From Parcubacteria bacterium C7867-006 (GTDB taxonomy: Bacteria > Patescibacteriota > Minisyncoccia > Phycocordibacterales > DATDWN01), in NCBI GenBank assembly GCA_001189155.1, contig LFCP01000007.1, positions 1-58,438 on the forward strand: a stretch of 58,438 bases of DNA. The letters run 5' to 3'. Made by a program: the position numbers and the translations under genes. The first letter of the stretch is position 1; every line of letters begins with the position of its first letter. The notes beneath the pieces are model-generated. The model was not told where the DNA came from and searched no databases. It was given only the letters and a program-made list of their open reading frames with translations. Of the stretch, positions 13,599-53,571 are shown in pieces.

Positions 13599-14318
13599 AT
13601 GGAGCCAACTATTTTATATGAAGACAACAATCTGCTTGCTATAAACAAGCCAGCTGGACTTGTTGTGCATAGTGACGGAAAAACAAAAGAACCAAACTTA
13701 GTTGATTGGCTTGTTTTAAAATATCCAGAAATAAAAACAGTTGGGGAACATGGAAGAGATAGTGAGGGAAAAGAAGTCTTGCGTTCCGGAATAGTTCATC
13801 GTTTAGATAGAGATACTTCTGGTGTTATGCTTGTAGCAAAAACACAGGAAGCTTTTGAAAATCTAAAATCTCAATTTCAAAATCATGAGGTGGAAAAAAC
13901 TTATCATGCTTTTGTTTTGGGTGAAATGAAAACAGAAAAGGGTGTAATAGATAGACCTATCGGCAGAAGTAGTAAAGATTTCCGTATGTGGTCTGCACAG
14001 AGAGGTGCAAGGGGGGAGCTACGAGAGGCAATAACTGAATACAAAGTTTTGGCTAAAAAAGACGGCTATACTTTTGTTGAAGTAAAACCAAAAACAGGCC
14101 GAACCCATCAAATCAGAGTCCATTTTAAGGCTATAAACCACTCATTGGTTGGAGATTCTTTATATGCCCCAACACAGGAAAACAAGCTTGGATTCGCAAG
14201 AACAGCTTTGCATTCATATAGGGTTAATTTTAGTGGTTTAGATGGACAAAGTCATACTATAACAGCCCCGTATCCAGAGGATTTTTCTAGAGCTGTGGCT
14301 CTGTTGCAAAGCGTCTAG
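13599..14318 (+). CDS. RluA-family pseudouridine synthase
   Basis: 239 aa with the catalytic HRLDRDTSGVMLVAK motif and the GRTHQIRVH motif. Confidence 0.9.
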   Translation: MEPTILYEDNNLLAINKPAGLVVHSDGKTKEPNLVDWLVLKYPEIKTVGEHGRDSEGKEVLRSGIVHRLDRDTSGVMLVAKTQEAFENLKSQFQNHEVEKTYHAFVLGEMKTEKGVIDRPIGRSSKDFRMWSAQRGARGELREAITEYKVLAKKDGYTFVEVKPKTGRTHQIRVHFKAINHSLVGDSLYAPTQENKLGFARTALHSYRVNFSGLDGQSHTITAPYPEDFSRAVALLQSV

Positions 14319-14343
14319 TCTTGTGTTAGATTACTAGCTACTT

Positions 14344-14760
14344 ATGGAAATTCAGTCACCAGTAAAAATCGCTGACCGAAAAAACTTTGATATCAGATCA
14401 GGGGATACAGTTCGTGTTTGGCAAAAAATTCAGGAAAAAGACAAAATCAGACTTCAGGCTTTTGAGGGTTTGGTTATAGCTGTTAAGCATGGAAAAGAGG
14501 CTGGAGCTACTTTTACAGTTAGACGAGTAGCATCTGGAGTAGGAGTTGAAAAAATATTCCCACTATACTCTCCAATGATTGATTCTATTGAAACAGTAAA
14601 AAGATCAAAAGTAAGGCGAGCAAAGTTGTATCACGTAAGAGATAAAGCAGCAAAGGAAATTAGACGACAAATGAGAAATATTCGAGCTCTTCCAGACAAT
14701 ACTCCAAGTGAGGAAGAAGTAGTAGAAGAAGCTCCAGCAGAAGAGGCAAAAGCAGAATAA
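14344..14760 (+). CDS. rplS: 50S ribosomal protein L19 with an acidic C-terminal tail
   Basis: 138 aa with FDIRSGDTVRV...RLQAFEGLVIA...GATFTVRR...GVEKIFPLYSP. Confidence 0.92.
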   Translation: MEIQSPVKIADRKNFDIRSGDTVRVWQKIQEKDKIRLQAFEGLVIAVKHGKEAGATFTVRRVASGVGVEKIFPLYSPMIDSIETVKRSKVRRAKLYHVRDKAAKEIRRQMRNIRALPDNTPSEEEVVEEAPAEEAKAE

Positions 14761-14763
14761 TCA

Positions 14764-14787
14764 AAAACTCCCGAAAGGGAGTTTTTG
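14764..14787 (+). terminator. Intrinsic terminator after rplS
   Basis: AAAAACTCCC-GAAA-GGGAGTTTTT. Confidence 0.8.
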
Positions 14788-14826
14788 ATTGAAATAAAAA
14801 TTAAACTCCAATATACTGCTTCTATT

Positions 14827-14911
14827 GCCCAGGTGTTGAAATTGGTAGACAAGCACCCTTGAGGTGGGTGTGCCGTAAGGTGTGGAGGTTCGAGTCCTCT
14901 CCTGGGCACCA
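14827..14911 (+). tRNA. tRNA-Leu (anticodon GAG), long variable arm, CCA encoded
   Basis: Acceptor GCCCAGG/CCTGGGC, anticodon loop TTGAGGT, T-arm GGAGGTTCGAGTCCTCT. Confidence 0.9.
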
Positions 14912-14915
14912 AAAT

Positions 14916-15557
14916 ATGTTTTTACAAATAGAGCAATTACTTTTTTCTGTATCTAACCAGGTTCCTCTTTGGTTCTTTTCTATTACTTCCTCTTTGGTAG
15001 AAGAAATAATCGCTCCAATACCTTCACCTTTGGCTATGACGATTACTGGCTCTATGGCTAAAATTCAGGATGTGAGTTTCTATTATCTTTTGTTTTTGAC
15101 TTTATTGGGTGCAATAGGTAAGACGGTCGGTTCTGTTGTTGTATATTTTTTGGCTGACAAGATTGAGGATGTTTTTTCTGGGATTTTTGAAAAATATTTT
15201 GGTATAAATCATGAACAAATAGAATCTTTTGGTAATAAATTTAACGGTAGTTATAAAGATTATTTTATAATGTTTTTTTTGAGAGCGGTGCCTATTTTAC
15301 CGAGCTCTTTGATTTCTGTTGGTAGTGGAGTTTTAAGAGTTTCTAAGAGAGTTTTTATTATGTCAACTTTTTTAGGTTCTTTAGTTAGGGATTTTATTTA
15401 TATTTACTTTGGTTATGCTGGTGTAGTTGTTTTGGGTGAATTTATAAAAAAAACAGGTGACGTTGAATCTTTAGTTCAAAAGATAGTATTTATAATAATT
15501 TTTGCAACCCTTTCTTTTTTGTTTTTTAAGAAAAATAGTAAAAAAACTAGAGTCTAG
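14916..15557 (+). CDS. DedA/VTT-domain family membrane protein
   Basis: The ATG at 14916 lies just after the tRNA; the tracked start at 14859 lies inside tRNA-Leu. Multi-pass membrane protein with the ...VPILPSSLISVGSG... motif. Confidence 0.7.
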   Translation: MFLQIEQLLFSVSNQVPLWFFSITSSLVEEIIAPIPSPLAMTITGSMAKIQDVSFYYLLFLTLLGAIGKTVGSVVVYFLADKIEDVFSGIFEKYFGINHEQIESFGNKFNGSYKDYFIMFFLRAVPILPSSLISVGSGVLRVSKRVFIMSTFLGSLVRDFIYIYFGYAGVVVLGEFIKKTGDVESLVQKIVFIIIFATLSFLFFKKNSKKTRV

Positions 15558-21348: not shown

Positions 21349-21894
21349 ATGTCAAAACAACAGCCACAAGCAGGAAGAAACTGGTACGTTATTCATACAT
21401 ATGCTGGATACGAGAATGCTGTTATGAGAAATCTTAAACAGCGTATCGAGTCTCTTGGAATGGAGGATAAAATTTTTAATGTAATAGTTCCTACTGAAAA
21501 GAAAATAAAAATAAAAGGAGGAAAGAGAGTAGAAGAAGAAGAGAAAATATATCCAGGTTATATTTTGGTAGATATGATCGTAACAGAGGACTCATGGTTC
21601 GTAGTAAGAAACACTCCACGTGTGACAGGTTTTGTTGGTTCTGGTGTTTACCCAGTTCCAATTGATCCAAAAGAAATTGAAGAATTATTTGGACGAATGA
21701 ATGCTCACACTGCAAAACACAAGATAGATTTGTCAGTAAATGACTCTATTATCATTGTTGACGGTCCGTTCAAAGACCTAGAGGGTAAAGTTTCAGAGGT
21801 AGATGAGGAAAGAGGTAAGGTAAAGGTTCTTGTGGCTATGTTTGGCCGTGAGACACCAGTAGAGCTAGACTTCTTGCAGGTACGTAAATCATAG
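21349..21894 (+). CDS. nusG: Transcription termination/antitermination factor NusG
   Basis: 181 aa with the NGN domain start WYVIHTYAGYENAV and a C-terminal KOW motif. Confidence 0.93.
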   Translation: MSKQQPQAGRNWYVIHTYAGYENAVMRNLKQRIESLGMEDKIFNVIVPTEKKIKIKGGKRVEEEEKIYPGYILVDMIVTEDSWFVVRNTPRVTGFVGSGVYPVPIDPKEIEELFGRMNAHTAKHKIDLSVNDSIIIVDGPFKDLEGKVSEVDEERGKVKVLVAMFGRETPVELDFLQVRKS

Positions 21895-21939
21895 GTTGCA
21901 ATTTGGTGTATTTTATATTAATCTATCAGAACTAAAAAC

Positions 21940-22362
21940 ATGGCAAAGAAAATTACAAAAAAGCTTAAATTGGTCATCCCAGCAGGGAAGGCAACACCAG
22001 CTCCTCCAACAGGACCTGCTTTGGGACAGGCTGGAGTTAACATTGGTGAATTCGTAAAACAGTTCAACGATGCTACAGCTAAAATGGCTGGAGATATTGT
22101 TCCAGTTGAGATATCAGTTTATGAGGACCGAACATTCTCTTTTGTATTAAAGACTCCTCCAGCATCATCACTTATCCTAAAAGCTCTTGGAAAGGAGAAG
22201 GGCTCTGGAAAGAACGCAGTTTCAAAAATTGGCTCAATTACAAAGGCACAGCTAAAAGAAATTGCAGAAAAGAAAATGCCAGACTTGAATGCTAATGATA
22301 TTGATGCCGCAATGAAAATTATTGCAGGTTCTGCTCGAAGTATGGGGGTTGATGTGAAATAG
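21940..22362 (+). CDS. rplK: 50S ribosomal protein L11
   Basis: 140 aa with [22 protein letters not shown]. Confidence 0.95.
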
Positions 22363-22380
22363 GTATAAAAATTTAAAACA

Positions 22381-22412
22381 AAAAAAGACACTGATGTAAA
22401 GTGTCTTTTTTT
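22381..22412 (+). terminator. Intrinsic terminator after rplK
   Basis: AAAAAAGACAC-TGATGTAAA-GTGTCTTTTTTT. Confidence 0.8.
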
Positions 22413-22464
22413 GTTATTTCAGATAATACTTTGTTTCAGAACAGTGTTCTTGAAAGGAGATTGA

Positions 22465-23106
22465 ATGGAAGTGAATAAATCGGATTGGACTTTGAAATCC
22501 ATCCTCAAGGCAAAACACGGGGTTACTGAGAAGTACATCCCGAACCTTGATGATCTGAAGAAGATCGTCGAGGCGGCAAAGCAGGGTGGCTACAAGGTCG
22601 GACTTACTCAGGGCGTCTACGACATGTTCCATGTCGGCCATGGACGTTACCTCGAGGAGGCCAGTACTCATGCGGACATCCTCATCGTCGGAGTGGACTC
22701 AGACGAGCTCACACGGTCGATGAAAGGTCCCACTCGACCATTCGACACCTTCGAGGAGAGGATTGAGATTTTGGCGATGCTCTCCTGCGTTCACGTCATC
22801 GTTAAGCGTGATGTCGACCAGCACATGTACGATCTCATCAAGCTCGTCAAGCCTGATGTTCTCGTGATGTCGCAGACGACTCGCACTTTCGGTGATGAGG
22901 ACAAACGTGTTCTGAACGAGTACTGCGGTACCATCAGACATCTCGAAGCCAAAGCAGCAACGTCAACAACGGCGAAATTGCGCCGTCTCAAGATTGAGGG
23001 AATTACACCTTTTTCGATTGCGGTGAAACAGAAAGTCACCGAGTTCGCAGAAGACGTGATCTCTCTCGTCGAGTCTTCGTTGAAAGGGGAAACTGATGGG
23101 CAGTAA
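22465..23106 (+). CDS. Cytidylyltransferase-fold nucleotidyltransferase (TagD / RfaE domain II-like); GC-rich island gene 1
   Basis: 213 aa. GVYDMFHVGHGRYLEEA is the HxGH motif, followed by ILIVGVDSDE and a C-terminal ATSTTAKL that resembles the RTxGISTT motif. Confidence 0.8.
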   Translation: MEVNKSDWTLKSILKAKHGVTEKYIPNLDDLKKIVEAAKQGGYKVGLTQGVYDMFHVGHGRYLEEASTHADILIVGVDSDELTRSMKGPTRPFDTFEERIEILAMLSCVHVIVKRDVDQHMYDLIKLVKPDVLVMSQTTRTFGDEDKRVLNEYCGTIRHLEAKAATSTTAKLRRLKIEGITPFSIAVKQKVTEFAEDVISLVESSLKGETDGQ

Positions 23107-23986
23107 CCTCATCGGTTACATTCCAACTCTGAACCAGCGTCACCTGAGCTGGTTCGAGCGTCACCCTCGGAGTAAGCTTTTTCTTGTCACACAGAAAATG
23201 GCAGAGGAGCTTCTCCCTCGCCTTGCTAGAAATATGGCGGGGGTTCCGACTCAGGCGATGGAAACAATGATCAAGTCGCTTGGGGTGGTGGAAGATGTTT
23301 GTTTGTTTGAGCCTGATGAGGACAGCCCTCGTCTAGTCTCACACAAGCAGAACCATCCTTTTGGTGCATCCGGTTGGAAAAGCTGGGTGTTGCCGGACGA
23401 AGATATCTCACATATCGTCGCTCAGAAATACTTGTACCCGGCGGATAAAACTGCTGAGTTCGAGATGATCTGGGCCCGGTGGGATATGACGGCGGTGCAC
23501 AAAGCACAGCCGATCATTCCTGATGTTGTAGTTTCAAGCTCTCCTCTGGACATCATCAGAATGAGAGCTGCACAGCGGGAAGCAATCAAAAGTCCCGACT
23601 GGTGGAGACAGATAGCAGCTGCTGCGTGGCTCGACGACGAGTGTATCGCAGTTGCTTGCAACACCCACATGCCCAACGAGTACGAAACGTACATCTTCGG
23701 CGACCCACGGCTTAACGTAGACGCGGGTCAACCCGGTAGGTACGTTGCTCTCCATGCTGAGCGAGCGGTAATTGCTCAGTGTGCTAGACGTAAGGGAATC
23801 GGACTCGAGGGTGCATCACTCTATGTTACGACATTTCCGTGCGAAGACTGTGCACGTGAAATTCGCGAGGCTGGAGTGAAGAAAGTGTTCTTTGAATCTG
23901 GTTACTCGGTCCTAAATGCGCAAGATGTTCTACGTTCGCGTGGTATCGAGATCATCCAGGTAGTCAGAACCCCCACCGTCGCGTAA
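23096..23986 (+). CDS. Fusion of an unknown N-terminal domain (~165 aa) with a dCMP/cytidine deaminase zinc-binding domain; island gene 2
   Basis: 296 aa. The C-terminal half has HAERAVI ... TFPCEDCAREI (HAE / PCxxC zinc motifs). The start overlaps the stop of gene 1 by 11 nt. Confidence 0.8.
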   Translation: MGSNLIGYIPTLNQRHLSWFERHPRSKLFLVTQKMAEELLPRLARNMAGVPTQAMETMIKSLGVVEDVCLFEPDEDSPRLVSHKQNHPFGASGWKSWVLPDEDISHIVAQKYLYPADKTAEFEMIWARWDMTAVHKAQPIIPDVVVSSSPLDIIRMRAAQREAIKSPDWWRQIAAAAWLDDECIAVACNTHMPNEYETYIFGDPRLNVDAGQPGRYVALHAERAVIAQCARRKGIGLEGASLYVTTFPCEDCAREIREAGVKKVFFESGYSVLNAQDVLRSRGIEIIQVVRTPTVA

Positions 23987-24006
23987 GCGACGGTGGGGGG
24001 TTTTTA
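23970..24006. terminator. GC-rich bidirectional terminator between the convergent island operons
   Basis: CCCCCACCGTCGC-GTAA-GCGACGGTGGGGG followed by TTTTTA. The loop contains the stop codon of gene 2. Confidence 0.8.
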
Positions 24007-24462
24007 TTTCTTCTTGAAACCGACAGGTGCGACGATGAGGTCCTCGAGTTTGTTCTTCTCGTCGCCAACCTTCTCGCCACCTACGATTACATGAAAGTGC
24101 AAGTGGTCAATGGTAGCTGCAGTGCGACGCATATTGCCTGAGCGCACAAACACCGAGAAACCATCGAGTTCGAATCTGTTCTTGATCCACTCAACGGCTT
24201 CAAAGAGAGCGAGCTTTTCGTGAGTCGAAAGTTCTCGAATCTCCGTGACGTGGCGCTGGGCCACAACGAGGTAGTGATGTTCCGCCCCGTTGTATGGGTA
24301 GTCGTTCGGCTTCACGAACCAGAAAGGATTCTCCCATATTTTGCCTGAAGCTCCTCTGGAAGTGAAGTCGATGCAGAAGAAGCACTCATTCTTCTTCTCT
24401 GCCTCTTGCATCCGGGCGACCTGCTCGGAATGTCTAGCGTTGTCTATCTGCATTTTTGCCAA
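24004..24462 (-). CDS. HIT-family (histidine triad) nucleotide hydrolase/transferase; island gene 3
   Basis: 152 aa with an HLHFHVI triad and an N-terminal CFFC motif. Confidence 0.8.
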   Translation of the reverse strand: MAKMQIDNARHSEQVARMQEAEKKNECFFCIDFTSRGASGKIWENPFWFVKPNDYPYNGAEHHYLVVAQRHVTEIRELSTHEKLALFEAVEWIKNRFELDGFSVFVRSGNMRRTAATIDHLHFHVIVGGEKVGDEKNKLEDLIVAPVGFKKK

Positions 24463-24554
24463 TCGTCACCTCTTCTAGAGCCTTTCTATCATTTTTACAA
24501 AAAAAGACAAGCCGTCCTGGGTTACGCCGGGACGGCTTGGTTGTTGATGTTGGA

Positions 24555-25478
24555 CTATGTCGTGACAGGGATCTTCGGCATCGACGGTCCTGACTGGTAG
24601 TCCTCCAGACGAAGATGTTCAGGCCTGAAATCGAAGAGACTTTCGACCTTTTTGCCTTCTTCTGTGAGATAGACACTCGGGAACCGGTACGACGGTCGCC
24701 TCACGAGTTCTTTCACGTTCTCCAGCTGATCTTCGTAGAAGTGACTGTCGTGGGTTGCATGGATGAGCATGTACGGTTCAAGACCGAGAACATGTGCAAT
24801 CATCACCGTGAGTGCCGCGTACTGGATGGTGTTCGACGGAACGCCGATAGGGAAGTCTGCTGATCTCTGATCCATCCTGAGAGTCAGCTTTCCATCGACG
24901 ACGTACATCTCCACATCTCCATGACATGGAGCGACGATGACTTTCCGTTCCTTGCCAGTGTAGCCGATGGTGTAGTGGGGCAACCAGCTCGTGATCTTGT
25001 GTGTTGTCACATCCGGTCTTTCTTTCATCTGCCTCAGCACCTCCTTGAATTGATTGTAGGTGCTACCGTCTGGCGCGATGTACTGGAAGGCCCCGCCGTA
25101 GGATCCAGGTCCCAGGTCAGGGTATTCCAAACCGAAGTGTGCACACTTATCTTGTGTTGCCCACTGCTTGAGCCACCACTTCACACCCCAGACGTCGGCA
25201 AGAGCCTTGGCGTCACGCACTCCGTTGATGAACGCGAGGAGTTCACCAATCGGCGTCATCCAGAATGCGGAGATGTCCCGTTCCGTCATGACAGGAAAGC
25301 CATGCCGGAGGTTGAAGACCATCGGAGAGAGCGTTTTCACGCTGTATCTTCCGGTCGTCTGAAAGGGGTTTTTGGTCAAAACCCCTGGGCGACGAATCCG
25401 TCGCAGAATCTGATTCATGCGGTTCTTGTACTGAGTGTTGACTGCGCGCTGTTCCAGCGGCAGATATTTCGGATCCAT
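24555..25478 (-). CDS. Thymidylate synthase (ThyA) family enzyme, divergent; island gene 4
   Basis: 307 aa with APCHG (catalytic Cys), DQRSADFPIGVPSNTIQY and DSHFY, all matching ThyA core motifs. Confidence 0.8.
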   Translation of the reverse strand: MDPKYLPLEQRAVNTQYKNRMNQILRRIRRPGVLTKNPFQTTGRYSVKTLSPMVFNLRHGFPVMTERDISAFWMTPIGELLAFINGVRDAKALADVWGVKWWLKQWATQDKCAHFGLEYPDLGPGSYGGAFQYIAPDGSTYNQFKEVLRQMKERPDVTTHKITSWLPHYTIGYTGKERKVIVAPCHGDVEMYVVDGKLTLRMDQRSADFPIGVPSNTIQYAALTVMIAHVLGLEPYMLIHATHDSHFYEDQLENVKELVRRPSYRFPSVYLTEEGKKVESLFDFRPEHLRLEDYQSGPSMPKIPVTT

Positions 25479-25583
25479 TCTTTAGTCCTTTCTAAGGTAC
25501 GAACCTATGCTGATACTACTTACTATGGTATTTCTCGTCAAATGACGAGGCCGCACAGATGTGCGGCCTGACCCAGATGATTT

Positions 25584-26081
25584 TCAGTCTCTGGTATATT
25601 CAACGACAGAGAAGGGGAAGAAATTCTTCTCGTCCACCTCTTGGTTGAAGAGTGTTTCCGCATTCCAGTTTCCTGGCATGGGAGGAAAGAACGTGTCTCC
25701 TTCGATGAGGGAGAATAGGTGGGTGACGATGAGTCTTGATGTGTAGGGCATCATCAAGCGGTAGATTTCTGCACCGCCAATGATGAAGACTTCATCTCGC
25801 AGTTCGGCCAGTCGCAGAACTTCATCGCGATGGTGAAGAACGAGACAGTCTGGTTGGGAGTAGTTTGAATCCCTTGTGAGGATTACATTTTCTCTTTCAG
25901 GAAGGGGTTTGAATCTGGCGGGGATTGAGTCGAAGGTTTTCCGACCCATGACTACAGTCTTATTCATGGTCACTTTCTTGAAGTGGTCCATGTCGGCACG
26001 GAGTTTTCCTGCCCACGGCAGGTTTCCGTTTTTGCCGATTACTCCAAGTCGCGCCATCGCGACGATCATTGTGATTTTCAT
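25584..26081 (-). CDS. folA: Dihydrofolate reductase; island gene 5
   Basis: 165 aa with IVAMARLGVIGKNGNLPW, VVMGRKTFDSI and FIIGGAEIY. Confidence 0.9.
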   Translation of the reverse strand: MKITMIVAMARLGVIGKNGNLPWAGKLRADMDHFKKVTMNKTVVMGRKTFDSIPARFKPLPERENVILTRDSNYSQPDCLVLHHRDEVLRLAELRDEVFIIGGAEIYRLMMPYTSRLIVTHLFSLIEGDTFFPPMPGNWNAETLFNQEVDEKNFFPFSVVEYTRD

Positions 26082-26144
26082 CGTGTCCTCTCTGGGCTCG
26101 ATATTATACTTTATAAACTACTGGGTCAATGCTATTATTTAAAA

Positions 26145-26567
26145 ATGATTTTAAAGGTTAAAAGGCTTGAGTCTGATGCGATTTTACCAAGTTATGCTCA
26201 TCCAGGTGATGCAGGTTTAGATATATATTCTGGTGAAGATTTAACTCTAGCTCCAGGAGAATCAGGAAAAGTAAAAACAGGTGTGTCATTAGAAATTCAA
26301 GATGGTTTCGTCGGTCTTGTTTGGGATAAAAGCGGTCTTTCAATAAATCATGGTATAAAGACATTGGGTGGTGTAGTTGATTCTGGGTACAGAGGAGAAA
26401 TTATGATAGGAGTGATAAATCTTGGTAAAGAGTCATACACGTTTGAAAAAGGTCACAAAGTAGCTCAAATGTTAATTCAAAAAATTGAAAGGGTAGAAGT
26501 CATCGAGTCAGATGAATTAAATGATACAAGTAGAGGAGTTGGAGGTTTTGGTAGTACTGGTAAATAG
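26145..26567 (+). CDS. dut: dUTP diphosphatase (trimeric dUTPase)
   Basis: The ATG at 26145 gives MILKVKRL... with motifs AGLDI, GVVDSGYRGEI and SRGVGGFGSTG. The tracked ORF start at 25983 lies in the GC-rich region antisense to folA. Confidence 0.92.
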   Translation: MILKVKRLESDAILPSYAHPGDAGLDIYSGEDLTLAPGESGKVKTGVSLEIQDGFVGLVWDKSGLSINHGIKTLGGVVDSGYRGEIMIGVINLGKESYTFEKGHKVAQMLIQKIERVEVIESDELNDTSRGVGGFGSTGK

Positions 26568-26580
26568 TTTGAAAAATAAA

Positions 26581-28284
26581 ATGAAAGAAGAAATAATAAA
26601 AAAAATTGAAGAGTTTCTGAAAGAAAAAGGAGTTCAAAATCCTAAAGTTAAATTGGCGCCTTCTGACTATTCAAAATTTTCTGCTGATTATTCGACAAAT
26701 GTCGCAATGGTTTATGCTAAGTTACTAAATATAAAACCCTCTGACTTGGCAATAGAAATTAGGCAATCGATAGAATCTCCCAGTCTTGGTAGAGTGCAAT
26801 CTAGTAATATTGATGGTTTCATCAATTTCTTTTTTGATAAAAAATATTTTGGAGATAATGTTTCAAAAATAATTGAGGAGGGGGGGAGGTTTGGAAAGAA
26901 CGAGAATCTAAAAGGTCAAAAGACTATCATTGAGTACACAGTGTGTAATGTATTAAAACCAATGCACATAGGTCACTTAATGGGTAATGTGATAGGAGAG
27001 TCACTTTCACGAATTATTGAAGCTGAGGGTGCCGAGGTTAAAAGAAACAACTACCAAGGTGATAGTGGGCTACATATTGCAAAAGCAGTATGGGGGATAA
27101 TAAAGTCTGGGGGAAAAATAGAAGGCAGTCTTTCAGAAAAAACAAAGTACATAGGTGATGCATATGCTCTAGGTTCTAATTCATATGATGATGATGAGAA
27201 TGCACAGAAGGAAATAAAAGAGTTGAATGAAAAAATATTTAAAAAAGAAGATGAAAATCTAAATGATATTTATAAGTGGGGAAGACAAGTTTCACTGGAT
27301 CATTTCGAAGAGTTGTATAAAAAGCTGGGCACAAAGTTTGATTATTATTTCTTTGAGAGTGAAGTTGCCGATAGTGCACTCACAATAGTTAGAGAGTTTT
27401 TGTTAAAAGGCGTATTTGAGGAGAGTGATGGCGCTGTTGTCTTCAAGGGTGAGAAGTATGATCCAAAGCTTCACACTAGAGTATTTATAAGCAGTCAGGG
27501 TATTCCTATGTATGAAGCAAAGGATATCGCCCATGCTCTACGAAAATATGAAACATATAAGTTTGATAAATCTATTATTGTTACTGCAAACGAGCAAAGT
27601 CAGTATTTCAAAGTTGTGCTGAGAGCCTTAAAAGAAGTTAACCCTGAAATAGCTGTAAAGACAGAGCACCTAGCGCATGGTATTTTAAAACTTCCAACAG
27701 GAAAGATGTCTTCTCGAAAAGGCAACACTATAACTGGAGAGACTCTGATAAATGATGTTGAGGAGATGGTCAGAGAAAAAATAAAAGATTCTGAATTTTC
27801 TGAATCAGAAAAAGATAACATTGCTGAATTGGTGGCGATAGGAGCGATAAAATATTCAATTCTTCATCAAGCTATCGGAGGGGATATTGTTTTTGATTTT
27901 GATAAGTCTATTTCATTTGAAGGAGACTCTGGTCCATATCTTCAGTACTCTGCTGTACGTGCAAACTCAATTTTGAAAAAAGCAGAGGGGGTGGTAAGTG
28001 TGTCAAAAAATATTCCAGATAGTTGGGAGACGACAAACTTAGAAAGAATTCTTGAGCGATTTCCAGATATTGTTGCTAGAGCAGGAAGTGAATACGCTCC
28101 GCACTACATAGCGACTTATCTTGTTGAACTAGCAGGGGAGTTCAACTCATTTTATGCTAGTCACAAAATAATAGACGAGGGGAATATAACTTCTCCATAT
28201 CGACTTACTCTTACGCAAGCTTTCTATCAAGTAATGCTTTCTGGATTAAATTTGCTCGGAATAAAAGTTCCAGAAAAAATGTAG
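26581..28284 (+). CDS. argS: Arginyl-tRNA synthetase
   Basis: 567 aa from the ATG at 26581. It has an HIGH motif (PMHIGHLMGN), an MSSRKG (KMSKS-like) motif and an Arg-tRNA anticodon-binding C-terminus. Confidence 0.92.
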   Translation: MKEEIIKKIEEFLKEKGVQNPKVKLAPSDYSKFSADYSTNVAMVYAKLLNIKPSDLAIEIRQSIESPSLGRVQSSNIDGFINFFFDKKYFGDNVSKIIEEGGRFGKNENLKGQKTIIEYTVCNVLKPMHIGHLMGNVIGESLSRIIEAEGAEVKRNNYQGDSGLHIAKAVWGIIKSGGKIEGSLSEKTKYIGDAYALGSNSYDDDENAQKEIKELNEKIFKKEDENLNDIYKWGRQVSLDHFEELYKKLGTKFDYYFFESEVADSALTIVREFLLKGVFEESDGAVVFKGEKYDPKLHTRVFISSQGIPMYEAKDIAHALRKYETYKFDKSIIVTANEQSQYFKVVLRALKEVNPEIAVKTEHLAHGILKLPTGKMSSRKGNTITGETLINDVEEMVREKIKDSEFSESEKDNIAELVAIGAIKYSILHQAIGGDIVFDFDKSISFEGDSGPYLQYSAVRANSILKKAEGVVSVSKNIPDSWETTNLERILERFPDIVARAGSEYAPHYIATYLVELAGEFNSFYASHKIIDEGNITSPYRLTLTQAFYQVMLSGLNLLGIKVPEKM

Positions 28285-28545: not shown

Positions 28546-31500
28546 ATGACCGAAGAAAATAAAAAAGGCGAGGTGGCTTTGAAAGAGGAGAAGATCCTTG
28601 AGTTTTGGAATGAAAATAAAATATTTGAAAAAACTTTGGACAAACCTGTTCATGAAAGTTTTCTTTCAAAAATTGGTTTAGGGGGACGAAAAGAGTTTGT
28701 ATTTTTTGAAGGTCCTCCAACAGCAAATGCAAAGCCAGCGCTCCACCACCTCGAGTCTCGAGTTTTTAAAGATATTATTCCTCGTTTCAAAACGATGCAG
28801 GGTTTTCATGTTAGGCGAAAAGCTGGTTGGGATACTCACGGACTTCCAGTTGAGTTGCAGATTGAGAAAAAACTTGGACTGAAATCTAAAAAAGAAATAG
28901 AAGCCTATGGTGTTGAGCAGTTCAATAAAGAGTGTAAAGACAGTGTTTTTACATATATTTCTGATTGGGAAAAGTTCACAGACAGAATAGGATACTGGGT
29001 TGATAAAAAGGATGCCTATTATACTTTTGATACACCATACATCGAGTCTGTTTGGAATATTTTGAAAACTGTAAACGAAAGAGGTTTGTTGTATAAGGAC
29101 TATAAAGTTTTGCCTTGGTGTCCACGATGTGGGACAGCCCTTTCTTCACACGAGTTGGCTCAAGGTTATCAGGATGATAAGGATTTGTCTGTTACTGCAA
29201 AGTTTAAAGTTGTCGGTGAGGATAACACGTATATACTCGCGTGGACTACTACACCTTGGACTTTACCAGGAAATGTTGCTTTAGCAATAGGGAAGGATAT
29301 TGAATATATAAGATATAAACAGAACGGTGAACAACTTATTATTGCAAAAGAATTGGCATCCAAATTTTTTCCAGATTTTGATCCTGAAAACAAAAATCAG
29401 TGGGAAAATATTTTTCAGAGTGAGCTTTTGAAGATGAGATACGAACCTCTCTATCCTTTTATGCAACAAAAGTTTGGAGACAAAAATCCAGAAGCATTTG
29501 CAAAAGCATACAAGGTATATGCTGCAGACTTTGTTACAACAACAGATGGAACTGGTATCGTTCACACAGCTGTTATGTATGGACAGGATGACTTTGTTTT
29601 GGGAAACCAGATCGGTTTACCGAAGTTTCACTTGGTAAAAGATGACGGTCATTATTTAGATGGAATGGATTTTCTTTCTGATAGGTTTGTAAAAGATGAG
29701 GAGGTAGCGGTTGATATTATAAAAGACCTAGCTCACAGAGGTTTGCTTTTCAAAAAAGAAAAGTATGAACACTCATACCCACATTGTTGGAGATGTAAAA
29801 CTCCACTTATCTACTACGCGAGAGACTCTTGGTATATATCAATGTCAAAACTCCGAAATGAATTGGTTGCAGAAAACGAGGGAATTGTTTGGGAACCAGC
29901 TCATATAAAAGAGGGACGTTTTGGCGAGTGGCTTCGCGAGATAAAAGACTGGGCGATTTCCAGAGAGAGGTATTGGGGAACACCACTTCCTATTTGGAAA
30001 AACGAGGAGGGAAAAATAAAAGTTATAGGAAGTGTTGATGAATTGAAAAAATATTCAAAAAAGTCTGGTAATAAGTATTTCATAATACGTCATGGAGAGG
30101 GAGAACATAATGTTGCAAATATAATCAGCTCTAAAAAAGATGATAATTTCCATCTGACAGAAAAGGGTAGAGAGCAGGTAAAAGTTTCTGCAGAGAGCTT
30201 AAAAGAAAAGGGAATTACAAAAATTATTTCATCTCCTTTTGTAAGGACTGTGGAGACCGCTGAAATAGTCAGAGAGATTTTAGGTTTAGAGAAAGATAAA
30301 GTTTCTTTTGATGATAGATTGGGAGAACATAATCTAGGAACATTAAGTGGACAGAGTGTTGATGAGTATCACAAAATAGCAAAGACAGATGAGGGCATAT
30401 ATGAAATGAAAGCTGGTGGAGGAGAGAGTCTTTTTGATGTTAAGGTTCGAACAGGACAGTTTATCTATGAGGCAGACAGAGCAAATCAAAACGAAACGAT
30501 ACTTATAATTGCGCATGAACATACAGCGTGGGCTTTGGAGTCTGCTGCATATGGATATAACAAAAAACAGACTGTTGATTTCGCAAAAGATAAAGAAGAG
30601 TTTATAAAAACTGCAGAGATTCATGAATTAGATTTTGTTCAGTTACCACATAACGCGAGCTACGAGGTTGATTTGCATAAACCATATATAGATGGTGTTG
30701 AGCTTGTAGATGAAGATGGAAACACTCTTACTCGTGTAAAAGAAGTTATGGATGTTTGGTTTGATTCTGGAGCTATGCCTTTTGCTCAAGATCATTATCC
30801 TTGGAACAAAGGAGAGCTTTTGTACCCAGCAGATTTTATTTCAGAAGCAATAGATCAAACAAGAGGCTGGTTTTATACACTTCACGCTATAGGAGTTTTG
30901 ATGGGTAAGGGTAAAGCCTATAAAAATGTTATTTGTTTAGGTCATATTCTAGATTCTGAAGGTAAAAAAATGTCTAAGTCAGTAGGAAATATTATAGACC
31001 CATGGTTAATGATGGATAAATACGGAGTAGATGCTCTGCGTTTATGGATGTACACAGTTAATAGCCCTGGAGATTCAAAAAACTTTGATGAGAAAACAGT
31101 GGATGAAATTGTAAAAAAAGTTTTCAATCCACTTCTAAATATTGTTGCTTTTTATGAGTTGTATAAAGATGAGAGTATTGTTGCACACAATAAAAGCGAA
31201 AATATTTTGGATAAATGGATACTGTCACGACTAAACGAGCTTTTGAAAAATGGAACAACATCACTAGAAAAGTTCCAAGTTTTTGAATCCGCACGTCCTA
31301 TTAGGGATTTCACAAATGATTTTTCAACTTGGTATGTTCGTAGATCAAGAGAAAGATTTAAATCAGATGATGCAAAAGAAAAAAGCGATGCTTTGGGTAC
31401 AACATTGTTTGTGCTTAAAGAGTTAGCAAAATATATGGCGCCATTCACTCCATTTTTTGCCGAGGAAATCTATCAGAAAATTAAGTCACCAGATGATGCA

Positions 31501-32010
31501 GAGAGTATACATCTTTGTGTGTGGCCAGAGGTGGGAGAAGTTAATACTGAAATAATAGATAGTATGAAAAAGGTTCGGGAGGTTGTAACTTCGGCACTAG
31601 AGATAAGACAAAAATCAGGACACAAGGTTCGACAGCCACTAGCAAAACTTTCTATTCCAGAGAATCTTTCACAGGAACTTCTGGATATTATTGCGGATGA
31701 AGTAAATGTAAAACAGGTTGTTATAGAAGGAACTGAAGTGAAGCTGGACACCGAACTAACAGATGGTTTAAAGAAAGAGGGAATAGCTCGAGATATTATT
31801 CGAGCAATTCAGGATGCAAGAAAGAAAGAAAACCTAAACCCAAGTGACGCGATAAAACTAGTAGTAAGTACAGACAAAAAAGAAATAGTAAATGAATATA
31901 TGGAAATGATAAAATCTCCAACTGGGGTGACTGAAATATCATACTCAAACGATGAGCAAAACTACGTTGTTGAGGTTGAAGGTAAGACATCTTTCTCTGT
32001 GATAAAGTAG
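28546..32010 (+). CDS. ileS: Isoleucyl-tRNA synthetase (type 2-like) with an inserted histidine-phosphatase domain
   Basis: 1154 aa with a CP1 editing domain (TTPWTLPGN), WAISRERYWGTPLPIW and KMSKS. Residues ~510-700 (nt 30073-30645) carry RHGEGEHN, SSPFVRTVETA, GEHNLG and IIAHEHT, which is the phosphoglycerate-mutase-like phosphatase signature. Confidence 0.93.
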   Translation: MTEENKKGEVALKEEKILEFWNENKIFEKTLDKPVHESFLSKIGLGGRKEFVFFEGPPTANAKPALHHLESRVFKDIIPRFKTMQGFHVRRKAGWDTHGLPVELQIEKKLGLKSKKEIEAYGVEQFNKECKDSVFTYISDWEKFTDRIGYWVDKKDAYYTFDTPYIESVWNILKTVNERGLLYKDYKVLPWCPRCGTALSSHELAQGYQDDKDLSVTAKFKVVGEDNTYILAWTTTPWTLPGNVALAIGKDIEYIRYKQNGEQLIIAKELASKFFPDFDPENKNQWENIFQSELLKMRYEPLYPFMQQKFGDKNPEAFAKAYKVYAADFVTTTDGTGIVHTAVMYGQDDFVLGNQIGLPKFHLVKDDGHYLDGMDFLSDRFVKDEEVAVDIIKDLAHRGLLFKKEKYEHSYPHCWRCKTPLIYYARDSWYISMSKLRNELVAENEGIVWEPAHIKEGRFGEWLREIKDWAISRERYWGTPLPIWKNEEGKIKVIGSVDELKKYSKKSGNKYFIIRHGEGEHNVANIISSKKDDNFHLTEKGREQVKVSAESLKEKGITKIISSPFVRTVETAEIVREILGLEKDKVSFDDRLGEHNLGTLSGQSVDEYHKIAKTDEGIYEMKAGGGESLFDVKVRTGQFIYEADRANQNETILIIAHEHTAWALESAAYGYNKKQTVDFAKDKEEFIKTAEIHELDFVQLPHNASYEVDLHKPYIDGVELVDEDGNTLTRVKEVMDVWFDSGAMPFAQDHYPWNKGELLYPADFISEAIDQTRGWFYTLHAIGVLMGKGKAYKNVICLGHILDSEGKKMSKSVGNIIDPWLMMDKYGVDALRLWMYTVNSPGDSKNFDEKTVDEIVKKVFNPLLNIVAFYELYKDESIVAHNKSENILDKWILSRLNELLKNGTTSLEKFQVFESARPIRDFTNDFSTWYVRRSRERFKSDDAKEKSDALGTTLFVLKELAKYMAPFTPFFAEEIYQKIKSPDDAESIHLCVWPEVGEVNTEIIDSMKKVREVVTSALEIRQKSGHKVRQPLAKLSIPENLSQELLDIIADEVNVKQVVIEGTEVKLDTELTDGLKKEGIARDIIRAIQDARKKENLNPSDAIKLVVSTDKKEIVNEYMEMIKSPTGVTEISYSNDEQNYVVEVEGKTSFSVIK

Positions 32011-52913: not shown

Positions 52914-53073
52914 TTGACTTCATTGTGGTTTTTCTGTATTGTTATGCCTGTAAGGTCAAAGACAGGTGGTGGGTTTTAACCCTTAATTTCCGCCCGAGAC
53001 TCACAAAAGACAATAGTCACTTGTGAAATTTCTCGACCTTAGGTCGGTTTTTTATTTATCAAAAAATACAATT
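52914..53073 (+). promoter_or_regulatory. rplJ promoter plus structured leader with a terminator-like hairpin (putative L10 leader/attenuator)
   Basis: TTGACT (52914-52919)-N17-TATTGT, then CCTGTAAGGTCAAAGACAGG and other stems, then CTCGACC-TTA-GGTCGGTTTTTT ending ~20 nt before the rplJ ATG. Confidence 0.5.
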
Positions 53074-53571
53074 ATGGCAATTACAAAAGCAAAGAAAGGA
53101 GAAATTCTTGAAAAACTAAAAGGTATAGTAAAGGATTCTTCATCAATTGTATTTATAAACTTTCACGCTCTTCCAGTAACTGAAAGTTCTGAGATTCGAA
53201 AGACTCTTAGAACTAAAGGTGTGGGATATACTATTGCAAAAAAATCTCTAACAAAGAAAGCTTTAAACGAAGCTGGATTTGAGGGAACTCTACCAGATAT
53301 GCCTGGAGAAACAGGAATAGTATATAGTGCAGATCCATTGGACTCTGCTAGAGAGATTTATACATTCCAAAAGAAGTTTGATGGAAAAATTAAAATTCTT
53401 GGAGGAGTGTTTGATGGTAAGTTTATGGATATGGAGGCAATGGTTTCTGTGGCTCAAATCCCAGGACTAAAAACTCTACAAGCTCAGTTCGTCAACCTTA
53501 TCAATTCACCTATACAGGGATTTGTTATGGCGCTAAGTGAGATAGCAAAAAGTAAAGAAGCAAACAGTTAA
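53074..53571 (+). CDS. rplJ: 50S ribosomal protein L10
   Basis: MAITKAKKGEILEKLKG... from the ATG at 53074, followed by rplL. Confidence 0.9.
   Translation: MAITKAKKGEILEKLKGIVKDSSSIVFINFHALPVTESSEIRKTLRTKGVGYTIAKKSLTKKALNEAGFEGTLPDMPGETGIVYSADPLDSAREIYTFQKKFDGKIKILGGVFDGKFMDMEAMVSVAQIPGLKTLQAQFVNLINSPIQGFVMALSEIAKSKEANS

Follow-up and report, generated by a model that had tools for sequence, protein, structure and literature searches.

The thyA-folA pair, extended to a ThyA-FolA-GlyA cycle, makes up the classical thymidylate pathway; true thymidylate synthases alone draw their reducing equivalents from tetrahydrofolate (THF), hence their need for dihydrofolate reductase (DHFR), and in Gram-positive bacteria and eukaryotes the dUMP comes from dCMP deaminase and dUTPase. 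The same enzyme families are clustered in phage nucleotide modules, such as the T4-like cd, td and frd genes, and cyanophage S-TIM5 encodes a dCMP deaminase. Ethanolamine-phosphate cytidylyltransferase (ECT) consists of an active cytidylyltransferase (CT) domain plus a second, degenerate CT domain. GC-atypical genomic islands, finally, show a sharp break in GC content, codon use and tetranucleotide composition that is limited to a block of genes. The locus described here resembles each of these in part. In Patescibacteria, thyA belongs to the minimal gene repertoire (PMC12455944), and folA is common and functional in CPR bacteria, complementing an E. coli delta-folA strain (PMC11974145), so that such a module is not, as the first-pass annotation had supposed, unexpected in a salvage-dependent group.

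The window, by which we mean the whole 58,438-nt stretch of DNA that was analysed, belongs to a CPR bacterium, as had been recognised earlier. Its positions 22465-26081 hold a block of five genes between rplK and dut. We consider it probable, at roughly 65%, that this block is an ancient, essentially vertically inherited Parcubacteria-type CPR cassette that makes thymidylate from salvaged deoxypyrimidines, and that its GC excess is maintained rather than recently acquired. The five family assignments of the first-pass annotation are correct by Pfam, and with them its description of the gene content as a dCMP-to-dUMP-to-dTMP module plus nucleotidyl-transfer and HIT enzymes. The features of the locus are as follows.

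21940-22362, plus strand: rplK (ribosomal protein L11), Pfam Ribosomal_L11_N and Ribosomal_L11; AT-rich, GC3 0.29; conserved upstream neighbour
22377-22415, no strand assigned: nusG-rplK terminator, an AT-rich hairpin between an A-run and a T-run (sequence and terminator-like scan)
22422-22450, plus strand: candidate promoter -10 GATAATACT (22422-22430), then palindrome AGAACAGTGTTCT (22438-22450), from sequence
22465-23106, plus strand: cytidylyltransferase-family nucleotidyltransferase (NTase), 213 aa; Pfam CTP_transf_like 4e-13; GC3 0.63
23096-23500, plus strand: N-terminal domain (N-domain) of the fusion protein, residues 1-135; family-private, Rossmann-like alpha/beta
23561-23986, plus strand: dCMP deaminase domain of the fusion protein, residues 156-296; Pfam dCMP_cyt_deam_1 4e-14
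23753-23761 (HAE) and 23837-23851 (PCxxC), plus strand: deaminase zinc site, both motifs invariant in 26 sequences
23970-23999, plus strand: perfect 13-bp GC hairpin and T-run, terminator of the NTase-deaminase operon (sequence and terminator scan)
24004-24462, minus strand: HIT-family protein, 149 aa (ATG 24453) or 152 aa (TTG 24462); Pfam DcpS_C and HIT
24508-24539, minus strand: GC hairpin followed by a minus-strand T-run, terminator after the ThyA gene (spacer sequence)
24555-25478, minus strand: ThyA-family enzyme, 307 aa; Pfam Thymidylat_synt 1e-48
25513-25568, minus strand: ThyA-DHFR spacer with promoter-like TTGACG-17-TAGTAT (25541 to 25513) and a GC hairpin (25549-25568) after the DHFR gene; consensus matches only
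25584-26081, minus strand: dihydrofolate reductase (FolA), 165 aa; Pfam DHFR_1 5e-50, full length
26101-26138, divergent: promoter-like sites for DHFR (minus) and dut (plus), matched in the sequence
26145-26567, plus strand: dUTPase (dut); Pfam dUTPase 2e-30, NCBIfam dut; AT-rich, GC3 0.18

The abrupt GC-rich block reported at first pass is real and highly significant. GC content is ~0.51 within the five genes and 0.35 outside them; in 1-kb windows it stands at 0.45-0.52 between 22 and 26 kb against 0.29-0.41 over most of the window, where the only other rises are a gene at 47-50 kb (0.41-0.43) and the 23S rRNA from 56 kb. Followed in 100-nt steps, GC climbs at ~22500, just inside the first gene, and falls at ~26090, at the DHFR start, back to the level of the AT-rich, 63-nt DHFR-dut spacer. 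The five genes have a GC3 of 0.54-0.66, compared with 0.257 ± 0.045 (maximum 0.382) for 50 other ORFs, which corresponds to z = 6.3-8.8 for the four retained in the ORF set and to ~7 SD above the same background for DHFR (0.578). The tetranucleotide distance of the block (0.57) is the largest in the window (0.18 ± 0.06), and base use at its fourfold sites is nearly uniform, like that of a 50% GC genome. A chimeric assembly does not account for this, as a separately assembled Logan contig of 4967 bp from run SRR2043728 crosses both junctions and is 100% identical to window positions 22190-27156; the rplK/NTase and DHFR/dut junctions are also found again in other genomes.

Such a profile could be the un-ameliorated signature of a phage or higher-GC donor from which the window genome recently acquired the whole five-gene island, and this was the first-pass interpretation. 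The sharp edges at the outer gene ends, the GC3 z scores of 6-9, the near-uniform fourfold base use, a cassette-to-flank GC3 offset (+0.35) that is the largest among the sampled genomes, and a published case of thyA transfer into Patescibacteria (PMC12455944) are all in keeping with it. Nonetheless, the hypothesis is largely refuted, and we regard it as very improbable. The core, in which NTase and deaminase genes converge on HIT and ThyA genes, occurs at no fewer than 75 non-redundant loci/species among the sampled Patescibacteria, and the fusion deaminase in 143 GTDB species, with all loci listed being patescibacterial. It usually lies directly 3' of nusG-rplK and ahead of argS-ileS-recO: within 6 kb of the core, L11 is found in 56, NusG in 51, ArgRS in 40 and DHFR, whose position relative to the core varies, in 50 of the 75 loci. 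Dozens of patescibacterial species carry the same cassette in the same slot, with proteins 32-78% identical to those of the window. Searches with NTase, deaminase and ThyA among 5.8 billion proteins gave Patescibacteria as the source of every nearest homologue; none exceeds 78% identity, and the close relatives sit in AT-rich flanks.

The cassette proteins fall among CPR homologues of vertical descent. No phage homologue, ThyA included, is more than 33% identical, the N-domain was not found among phage deaminases, no phage carries the fusion architecture, and only one contig labelled 'viral' carries the family. Unlike the phage modules, the cassette is chromosomal and fixed beside ribosomal genes across a class-level lineage; unlike genomic islands, it has no mobility genes and no tRNA or repeat boundaries, keeps its position across species and co-diverges with its flanks. 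Nor does it occupy a displaced rplA slot, as had been proposed. While the window and most related loci lack rplA, the loss of uL1 in a subgroup of Parcubacteria has been published (PMC9297842), and four loci that keep rplA (L061, L071, L082, L086) have it between rplK and the cassette. The direct adjacency of the cassette to rplK therefore reflects loss of rplA in the lineage rather than an insertion.

Sequence divergence points the same way. The distance matrices of HIT and ThyA track those of NusG and L11 (Spearman 0.60-0.72), and normalised residual fourfold identity in cassette and flanks is 0.117 versus 0.118 between the window and L005, 0.096 versus 0.092 between the window and L013, and 0.327 versus 0.330 between L025 and L026. 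Residual synonymous similarity that is equal in cassette and flanks indicates vertical inheritance and speaks against recent import of the whole island. So does the breadth of the GC excess, since in the AT-rich clade all 24 species have a higher GC3 in the cassette than in the flanks (by +0.005 to +0.35, with little or no excess in L032, L036 and L037).

A further explanation is that the cassette, or parts of it, has been swapped repeatedly among Parcubacteria by in-place replacement through the conserved flanks. Its composition would then be that of a shared gene pool, and the window copy would have come in fairly recently from a GC-richer relative outside the sample. The cassette-minus-flank difference in GC3 falls as flank GC3 rises (r = -0.73) and is ~0 or negative in the GC-rich lineages, so that cassette GC3 is drawn to 0.45-0.6 whatever the host GC, as exchange would allow; in composition the five genes belong together and stand apart from dut and SHMT, and nearest neighbours differ gene by gene. 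The NTase falls into two deep types whose distribution runs against the flank phylogeny and is at odds with all other genes. The window has type A (65% identical to that of L013), whereas L005 and L027, to which it is closest in HIT, ThyA and L11, have type B (38%). Judged by these comparisons, a limited lateral component does exist, with the NTase the only gene to show a swap. Exchange of the cassette at large is nevertheless unlikely, given that HIT and ThyA track NusG and L11 and that in several pairs cassette and flanks share the same normalised synonymous similarity, among them L025-L026, the closest, in which the offset is still +0.23 to +0.25. In addition, at ~70% protein identity between lineages the flanks have diverged too far to recombine readily by homology, and no GC-rich donor with similar proteins was found among the sampled lineages, the GC-rich ones being 32-46% identical. 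In view of the NTase conflict, and of ArgRS distances that correlate poorly with those of NusG and L11, the vertical signal comes mainly from HIT, ThyA, NusG, L11 and the fourfold sites.

Under vertical inheritance of an ancient cassette, the GC excess calls for an explanation of another kind; unusually, this cassette has stayed GC-rich in AT-rich genomes. Between the window and every relative, fourfold sites are close to saturated, and the anomaly of an acquired island should not persist through synonymous saturation; an excess that survives near-complete synonymous turnover must be actively maintained. Two forces may be responsible: gene conversion biased towards GC, if the locus is prone to recombination, or selection acting on the coding sequence. 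Selection tied to pathway function fits poorly, because the functionally related neighbours dut and SHMT lack the excess.

The most likely function of the cassette, as read from its sequences, is conversion of dCMP and dUTP through dUMP to dTMP while the folate cofactor is recycled. In the fusion protein, the C-terminal domain is a predicted zinc enzyme that would deaminate dCMP to dUMP. Its best sequence match in the PDB is the S-TIM5 dCMP deaminase (7e-11), every top Foldseek hit is a dCMP deaminase (E 6.5e-9), and in sequence and fold it is closest to the short, non-allosteric type found in that phage. Further dUMP would come from dUTP through the neighbouring Dut, functionally linked, host-like in composition and adjoining the core in 15 of 75 loci, which would give the same two sources as in Gram-positive bacteria and eukaryotes. 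The ThyA-family enzyme would then methylate dUMP to dTMP, yielding dihydrofolate from which DHFR would restore THF. SHMT, not found in the 58-kb window, lies within 8 kb of the core in 23 of 75 loci, and in those relatives would close the folate cycle.

Methylation of dUMP by the ThyA-family enzyme is expected since all catalytic residues and the dUMP-specifying Asn are kept. E58, W80, Y94, C146, H147, Q165, D169 and Y209 are invariant in 76 orthologues, R166, S167 and N177 (the Asn at the dUMP-specificity position) are retained in 75 of 76, a C-terminal tail of the IP(V/T) type is still present, the score against NCBIfam TIGR03284 (129 bits) passes the cutoff of 108, and PDB hits reach E-values of at most 5e-32. 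Unlike the ThyA of the classical pair, however, it comes from a divergent subfamily restricted to CPR bacteria, with two family-specific insertions and an altered phosphate clamp. E. coli R21, R126 and R127 correspond to F, T and T in the window; among the orthologues, R127 is replaced by T in 70 of 76 and R21 by H, F or P, and R126 is lost in the window's subclade. With two to three of the four canonical dUMP-phosphate clamp arginines missing, the substrate of this subfamily could differ.

This raises the prospect that the product of the cassette is a modified pyrimidine nucleotide such as 5-hydroxymethyl-dUMP or a conjugate, the ThyA-like enzyme being a hydroxymethylase or acting on a 5'-substituted substrate while NTase and HIT protein build and remove the conjugate. 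Besides the clamp and the insertions, the family-private extra domain of the deaminase favours such a product, as does linkage to NTase and HIT that is tighter than to DHFR or dut. We find it improbable, given the DHFR and SHMT genes near so many cores, the conserved thymidylate synthase residues and tail, the NCBIfam cutoff passed, and the chance that this enzyme is the cell's only dTMP source.

Compared with the classical thyA-folA pair, the partners that never vary here (the NTase, the HIT protein and the extra-domain deaminase) lie outside the known pathway, and DHFR and dut are linked more loosely. Within a thymidylate-producing cassette, the NTase is a likely partner of the deaminase, to which it is translationally coupled. 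The 11-nt overlap of the two genes noted at first pass is correct (23096-23106), and the overlap is 4 or 11 nt in relatives. The NTase keeps its HxGH (FHVGH) and TSTTAK(L)R motifs, as do 30 orthologues; it matches NCBIfam rfaE_dom_II at 1e-28, under the cutoff, and its top PDB matches are 5x9q ('Putative cytidylyltransferase') and ethanolamine-phosphate cytidylyltransferase. It resembles ECT (PDB 3elb) and HldC-type cytidylyltransferases, and, reminiscent of the ECT arrangement, an NTase predicted to be active is here coupled to a protein that starts with a Rossmann domain bearing an HxGH-like remnant (HxGY or NQRH); it may pair with that domain. Unlike in ECT, each domain has a polypeptide of its own, the second one shares its chain with a deaminase, and kinship between N-domain and CT domain lacks statistical support (hhalign aligns N-domain and NTase in register at a non-significant E = 0.1).

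The N-domain, with conserved motifs YIPTLNQRH, LPRLxRNM, LPDEDVSH and WARWDM, is confined to ~320 representative clusters among 1.84 billion proteins, and nearly all full-length hits are of 270-310 aa with the domain N-terminal. Its AF2 model (pLDDT 84, pTM 0.77) has no significant match in the PDB or BFVD, the best hits by TM being HUP-class NTases, and it is possibly a degenerate nucleotidyltransferase-like fold. It may substitute for the dCTP/dTTP allosteric site missing from the short deaminase type. The HIT protein, which has weak PDB matches to HIT proteins and Ap4A phosphorylase, retains its CxxC and His-triad catalytic histidines (C24, C27, H117 and H119 100% conserved, n = 76 orthologues) and its likely substrate would be a nucleotide conjugate by which the pathway is fed or controlled.

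The two strands differ in their apparent organisation. DHFR, ThyA and HIT had been described as a single minus-strand operon, but spacers of 92 and 105 nt, each with a GC hairpin, and promoter-like sites upstream of ThyA and of DHFR make this improbable. The post-ThyA hairpin passes the terminator scan, which finds the same 24508-24539 stem and reports it on the plus strand. Of the bidirectional terminator proposed at 23970, the GC hairpin is present and serves the plus strand, with the deaminase stop codon in its loop; a minus-strand role is less evident, as the T-run is on the plus strand only. Upstream of the NTase, the RBS-to-ATG spacer measures 5 nt, not 7 as first given. The palindrome reported at 22438-22450 is present and is a candidate operator; not found beyond the nearest relatives among the loci compared, AGAAC-N3-GTTCT recurs at the same position in L005, with degenerate palindromes in L013, L014, L016 and L026. 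An element like the 22377-22415 hairpin is also present in close relatives.

The GC-rich block at window 22465-26081 comprises five genes, a content proposed in the first-pass annotation and borne out by the ORF listing and Pfam:

22465-23106, plus strand: NTase, a cytidylyltransferase-family nucleotidyltransferase (CTP_transf_like)
23096-23986, plus strand: a 296-aa fusion protein (Deam), with dCMP deaminase at residues 156-296
24004-24462, minus strand: HIT protein
24555-25478, minus strand: ThyA-family enzyme
25584-26081, minus strand: DHFR

This cassette is neighboured by nusG-rplK upstream and by dut-argS-ileS-recO downstream. The Deam ORF overlaps that of the NTase by 11 nt. In the public protein collection the deaminase is entered as a 262-aa product (P0001) that starts 34 codons late (window 23096-23197). 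We regard the 296-aa ORF overlapping the NTase as the real protein, because its first 34 residues hold YIPTLNQRH, the most conserved motif of the family.

A palindrome (22438-22450), a ribosome-binding site and a GC hairpin had been annotated at first pass and are all found in the sequence, the hairpin with 13 bp at 23970-23999. The spacer between ribosome-binding site and ATG measures 5 nt rather than the 7 nt stated, and, as only one flank of the hairpin carries a T-run, it is not clearly the bidirectional terminator described. The proposed division into two convergent operons is only partly right: the two sets of genes do converge, but the minus-strand genes lie 92 and 105 nt apart with a GC hairpin in each spacer. 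The hairpin after ThyA passes a terminator scan, and promoter-like sites are found ahead of ThyA and DHFR. The palindrome is a candidate operator. We considered LexA and NrdR as its ligands and rejected both: the LexA box is GAAC-N4-GTTC, which the GAAC-N3-GTTC spacing misfits, and the palindrome is kept only in the nearest relatives. A search for riboswitches and other structured RNA control elements (THF, ZTP and others) gave nothing above noise.

The switch in composition noted at first pass is real and statistically strong. GC content is 0.29-0.41 in nearly all 1-kb bins of the window and 0.45-0.52 in the bins at 22-26 kb. At 100-nt resolution the rplK-NTase spacer reads 0.25-0.31, values over 0.5 are reached by ~22500, and GC drops under 0.4 again at ~26090, just beyond the DHFR start codon. 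GC3 is 0.54-0.66 in the five cassette genes against 0.257 +/- 0.045 (maximum 0.382) in 50 other ORFs of the window, giving z = 6.3-8.8 for the four cassette genes kept in the ORF set, with a similar GC3 (0.578) for DHFR. The cassette also shows the largest tetranucleotide distance in the window, and its amino acids lean towards GARP, with R/(R+K) of 0.49 versus 0.29. Its fourfold-degenerate sites are near uniform (A.20, C.29, G.25, T.26), compared with A.40, C.06, G.09 and T.44 in the flanks. GC3 is host-like in dut and in serine hydroxymethyltransferase (SHMT), neighbours of related function. The internal spacers, whose GC is raised only mildly and chiefly through GC-rich terminator stems, give no decisive support for a regional enrichment that extends to non-coding DNA. 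Elsewhere in the window, a 1172-aa ORF with a peptidoglycan-binding domain (46989-50507; GC 0.41-0.43) is the second strongest tetranucleotide outlier after the cassette, and the rise in GC over the last 2 kb reflects the 23S rRNA gene, which starts at 56150 and runs off the window end (56150-58438).

Composition atypical of the host is one feature of a genomic island, and it could also arise from a chimeric assembly. Within the limits of this analysis the latter can be excluded: a Logan contig of 4,967 bp, separately assembled from run SRR2043728, is identical to window 22190-27156 and spans both junctions, and the same junctions recur in other genomes.

The other island features examined are largely lacking. 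More than 190 full-length homologues of the fusion deaminase were found, the best non-self match being 67% identical, and all that are named belong to Patescibacteria (Minisyncoccia, Parcubacteria, Paceibacterota, Zambryskibacteria). The contigs of three homologues (67%, 65% and 51% identity) carry the five genes in identical order and orientation, between secE-nusG-rplK and dut/argS-ileS-recO. Scanning one genome per GTDB species, we found the family encoded in 143 species, and 80 loci, fetched through the deaminase, were retrieved and the window proteins mapped onto all of them. A four-gene core of NTase and Deam on the plus strand and HIT and ThyA on the minus strand is almost invariant, and 75 non-redundant loci have it. 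L11 lies within 6 kb of it in 56/75, NusG in 51/75 and ArgRS in 40/75; DHFR is nearby in 50/75, where it occupies one of three positions, 23/75 have SHMT at a distance of up to 8 kb, and only 15/75 have dut close by. These loci span GC contents of 0.34-0.63 and lineages including Kaiser-, Adler-, Sung-, Lipton-, Nomura-, Nealson- and Zambryskibacteria. Presence is thus not patchy among these deaminase-fetched loci, with the core in 75/75 of them and mostly in the same position. The nearest homologues of all three proteins searched are from Patescibacteria, those of the ThyA-like enzyme (at most 78% identical) and the NTase (at most 66%) with the exception of one contig of 4.5 kb that bears the label Thermoplasmatota and has probably been mis-binned. 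Neither an integrase nor a transposase ORF was found within or beside the block (ORF listing, Pfam), no tRNA gene lies within 6 kb of it, and its boundaries are an ordinary terminator and promoter spacer. A literature search brought up no earlier account of this four-gene core, its compositional behaviour or the domain fused to the deaminase.

The block had also been taken to occupy the slot of rplA. With an E. coli L1 probe, validated by matches of E = 1e-51 to 1e-69, tblastn detected rplA neither in the window nor in most of the loci. In four loci (L061, L071, L082 and L086), however, rplA is present between rplK and the cassette. The rplJ-rplL pair is 31 kb from the cassette region in the window, and there is no rplA beside it either. 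Loss of uL1 from a subgroup of Parcubacteria has been published (Tsurumaki et al. 2022, PMC9297842, citing Brown et al. 2015). Together with the four loci, this loss makes the position of the cassette beside nusG-rplK(-rplA) ancestral: the lineage lost an rplA that stood between rplK and the cassette, rather than having it displaced by the cassette. In this genome the classical nusG-rplKAJL-rpoBC cluster is dispersed, with rplJ-rplL (53023-53990) ~31 kb from nusG-rplK (21349-22362) and a PKD-domain protein replacing rplA upstream of rplJ-rplL.

Distances between loci follow those of the flanks most clearly for HIT and ThyA. Concatenated cassette distances correlate with flank distances across 33 loci (Spearman 0.63). 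Among 20 members of the AT-rich clade, HIT and ThyA distances agree with NusG and L11 distances (correlations of 0.60-0.72) and with one another (0.72), Deam and DHFR are intermediate, and the NTase is uncorrelated with every other gene (at most 0.20). As ArgRS distances also correlate poorly with NusG and L11, such discordance is not peculiar to the cassette. The NTase comes in two deep types, A (56-65% identical to that of the window) and B (36-45%, with two insertions), whose distribution contradicts the other genes. The window has type A, as do the related loci L013 and L029, while its closest relatives by HIT (L005, 78%), ThyA (L027, 78%; L005, 75%) and L11 have type B. From these sequence comparisons, the NTase appears to have been exchanged at least once as a single gene within the cassette; it alone among the cassette genes conflicts with the flank history.

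The most telling comparison of synonymous divergence uses identity at the fourfold sites of conserved codons, with (observed - expected)/(1 - expected) as the normalised measure. For the window and the relatives sampled nearest to it, raw identity at these sites is 0.28-0.34 for the cassette, where saturation would give 0.25, and 0.42-0.46 for the flanks, where it would give 0.34-0.37; being so close to the saturation expectation, synonymous sites have turned over almost completely. Normalised similarity in cassette and flanks is 0.117 and 0.118 for window-L005, 0.096 and 0.092 for window-L013, 0.118 and 0.092 for L010-L027, and 0.327 and 0.330 for the closest pair, L025-L026. This agreement shows that cassette and flanks diverged together.

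A phage source is rejected on a tblastn search of 50,697 phage records, in which the best match to ThyA is 33% identical and the deaminase is matched over its C-terminal domain only (~31%). A scan of IMG/VR returned a single contig with the fusion deaminase (L089; IMGVR_UViG_3300037483_001116; 158 kb, locus GC 0.62), where NTase and Deam are present and no HIT, ThyA, DHFR or flank genes were detectable within 10 kb; this contig may come from a CPR genome and be mis-classified, or may represent a real variant context. With Patescibacteria homologues, co-divergence with the flanks and a conserved position, the recent acquisition from a phage or high-GC donor favoured at first pass is not supported, and the block belongs to an ancient variant form of the thymidylate-synthesis gene cluster that is specific to CPR bacteria. 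Genome scans should take this as a clear caution: genes with GC3 up to 9 SD over their genome, and with sharp edges, form an ancestral syntenic cassette and no recent island. Composition alone would lead to a false call of horizontal transfer or chimerism in every AT-rich Parcubacteria genome that carries the cassette.

The excess of GC is shared across the lineage. We compared cassette-minus-flank GC3 over 45 loci, including an AT-rich clade of 24 species (deaminase at least 43% identical to that of the window, flank GC3 0.21-0.47). The offset is positive in 24/24 of these species (+0.005 to +0.35), reaching +0.35 in the window, +0.32 in L013 and L014, +0.26 in L015 and ~+0.24 in L021, L025 and L029; in some of the clade members (L032, L036, L037) it has nearly gone. 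GC-rich lineages have offsets of about zero or below (lowest -0.16), and offset and flank GC3 correlate at -0.73 over the 45 loci. Codon positions 1+2 behave similarly, with GC of 0.45-0.48 in the cassette versus ~0.41 in the flanks of AT-rich hosts, and equal values in GC-rich hosts. A single ancient transfer that was never ameliorated cannot explain the shared excess, since synonymous sites are near saturation, and wholesale recent re-import is unlikely because synonymous divergence is equal in cassette and flanks. The explanation that remains is a persistent force acting on the block. At fourfold sites C and G gain alike and A and T lose alike, a symmetry that does not support sense-strand U-avoidance, a selection on mRNA composition tied to C->U/T metabolism. 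GC-biased gene conversion is compatible with the symmetric gain, and the NTase swap is at least evidence for recombination at the locus; selection on codon or mRNA properties is likewise compatible. A GC3 excess of +0.1 to +0.35 carried through synonymous saturation in a vertically inherited block is unusual, and makes the cassette a natural test case for biased gene conversion versus base-composition selection in bacteria.

This long-maintained GC excess is one of two points of interest, the other being three uncharacterised partners and a remodelled phosphate site in the ThyA-like enzyme. By sequence the enzyme belongs to the ThyA family (EC 2.1.1.45): it matches PF00303 at 1.1e-48 (166 bits, cutoff 24.3) and TIGR03284 at 129 bits (cutoff 108.35), while scoring far below the cutoffs of the five equivalog models NF002495-NF002499 and of NF010393. 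In ThyA, Cys146 is the nucleophile and Asn177 specifies dUMP over dCMP. C146, E58, Y94, H147, D169 and Y209 are invariant in 76 orthologues and N177 is kept in 75/76, with all tested catalytic residues present in the window protein; W80, Q165, R166, S167 and a PV/PT-type C-terminal tail are also retained, and there are two insertions. The dUMP 5'-phosphate is clamped in ThyA by four arginines (R21, R166, R126' and R127'), of which R166 alone is conserved here. R127 is replaced by T in 70/76 and R21 by H, F, P or Y (the alignment around R21 is less certain), and R126, kept in 55/76, is replaced in the subclade of the window and is T in the window protein. Production of dTMP and dihydrofolate from dUMP and 5,10-methylene-THF is putative, with indirect support from the linkage to DHFR in 50/75 loci. 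The DHFR itself is a FolA protein, matching PF00186 at 4.8e-50 over profile positions 1-159 of 159.

The deaminase has invariant HAE and PCxxC zinc motifs and matches PF00383 at 4e-14. In an AF2 model (pLDDT 81), the top 15 Foldseek matches are dCMP or dCMP/dCTP deaminases (E 6.5e-9 to 7e-7), led by the dCMP deaminases of S-TIM5, S. mutans, human and T4. An NCBIfam model of an anti-phage dCTP deaminase also matches the C-terminal 63 residues. With dCMP enzymes as best matches, dCMP is the predicted substrate, as against dCTP, CMP, cytidine or nucleic acid. The N-terminal domain (residues 1-135) is strongly conserved. Residues 1-150 have no match in Pfam, NCBIfam or PHROGs, and a PDB sequence search gave none for the domain. 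In fold searches with the full-length model the deaminase domain dominates the matches. Modelled alone (pLDDT 84, pTM 0.77), the N-domain is five-stranded and Rossmann-like, with no significant match in PDB or BFVD. Its best matches by TM, all non-significant, are HUP-class nucleotidyltransferases: a cytidylyltransferase-like protein (E 0.018, TM 0.51), citrate lyase ligase, NMNAT (TM 0.55) and pantothenate synthetase (TM 0.46). Profile-profile alignment by hhalign places its HxGY/NQRH in register with the HxGH of the NTase, but at E = 0.1. The modelled resemblance to the HUP fold is no more than suggestive. An exhaustive profile search of 1.84 billion representatives found the domain in only ~320 clusters, nearly all full-length matches being ~270-310 aa with the domain N-terminal; it is thus private to this deaminase family.

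The NTase belongs to the cytidylyltransferase family (PF01467, 4e-13; TagD/CCT/ECT/HldC type) and resembles the HldC- and ECT-type enzymes. Across 30 orthologues its FHVGH motif retains H56 in at least 90%, G58 nearly invariantly and H59 invariantly, and TSTTAK/RxR (the STT-R motif) is conserved. It scores 99.8 bits against TIGR02199, the model for heptose 1-phosphate adenylyltransferase (RfaE domain II/HldC), whose cutoff is 181.5, so the automatic name 'heptose adenylyltransferase' on its homologues is unreliable. The HIT protein belongs to its superfamily by the motif DHLHFHVI in the window and by matches to PF01230 (9e-7) and PF11969 (1.3e-7); the catalytic histidines H117 and H119, together with C24 and C27 of the CxxC zinc motif that marks the Hint branch, are 100% conserved in 76 orthologues.

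Read from sequence, the simplest function for the block, with DHFR and often SHMT beside it, would be a thymidylate cycle supplied by deamination of dCMP and hydrolysis of dUTP. Consistent with this, thyA has been placed in the minimal Patescibacteria repertoire (PMC12455944), and folA is reported to be common in CPR bacteria and to complement E. coli delta-folA (PMC11974145). The cluster, conserved in at least 143 species, would centre on the one deoxynucleotide that these reduced organisms apparently make for themselves. Linkage to ThyA is, however, tighter for the NTase, HIT and N-domain than for DHFR or dut. The cluster thus has three tightly linked partners from outside the classical pathway, namely a cytidylyltransferase-family enzyme, a HIT protein and the family-private domain carried by the dCMP deaminase, next to a ThyA subfamily whose phosphate site is remodelled. 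From the translational coupling and a possible pseudo-dimer, we take as a working inference that NTase and deaminase pair physically, alongside a nucleotide-conjugate or regulatory role.

A more far-reaching joint reading, to which we give a probability of roughly one in ten, is that the core is a new pyrimidine-processing machine in which dTMP is made on, or gated by, a nucleotide conjugate, and that cassette GC is actively held high. The active NTase and the degenerate, NTase-like N-domain would form an ECT-like pseudo-dimer that binds or forms a (d)CMP conjugate. This conjugate would be the substrate or the controller of the deaminase and of the ThyA-like enzyme, whose remodelled phosphate clamp would permit it, and the HIT enzyme would release the mononucleotide. 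GC in the cassette would at the same time be actively kept high in AT-rich hosts. If true, the cassette would be one of the rare vertically inherited gene blocks that keep a compositional equilibrium of their own.

Several minor observations concern the surroundings of the cassette. In close relatives, SHMT (glyA) lies inside the locus in L003 and L005 and a nucleoside 2-deoxyribosyltransferase follows dut in L003 (L003, 8584-10786; L005, 13425-14612), both without counterpart in the window; these extra pathway genes have host-like GC3, in contrast to the five cassette genes. L003, the closest relative, also carries a diversity-generating-retroelement-like pair between argS and ileS (13844-15298; GCA_049298975.1), consisting of a bAvd accessory protein and an RVT_1 reverse transcriptase, which is absent from the window. 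Six tRNA genes lie in the window, at 3471, 7978, 9073, 12716, 12793 and 15612. Taken at its longest, the ArgRS ORF shares 47 nt (26521-26567) with the end of dut, and the true start of argS is probably further downstream; in relatives argS begins 1-160 nt after the preceding gene. Finally, the IleRS (1154 aa; 28546-32010) has a histidine-phosphatase domain (His_Phos_1, phosphoglycerate-mutase-like) inserted inside the synthetase core. The same insertion appears in the precomputed Pfam matches of three related loci (L003, L005 and L007), and it looks like a lineage-conserved domain insertion.
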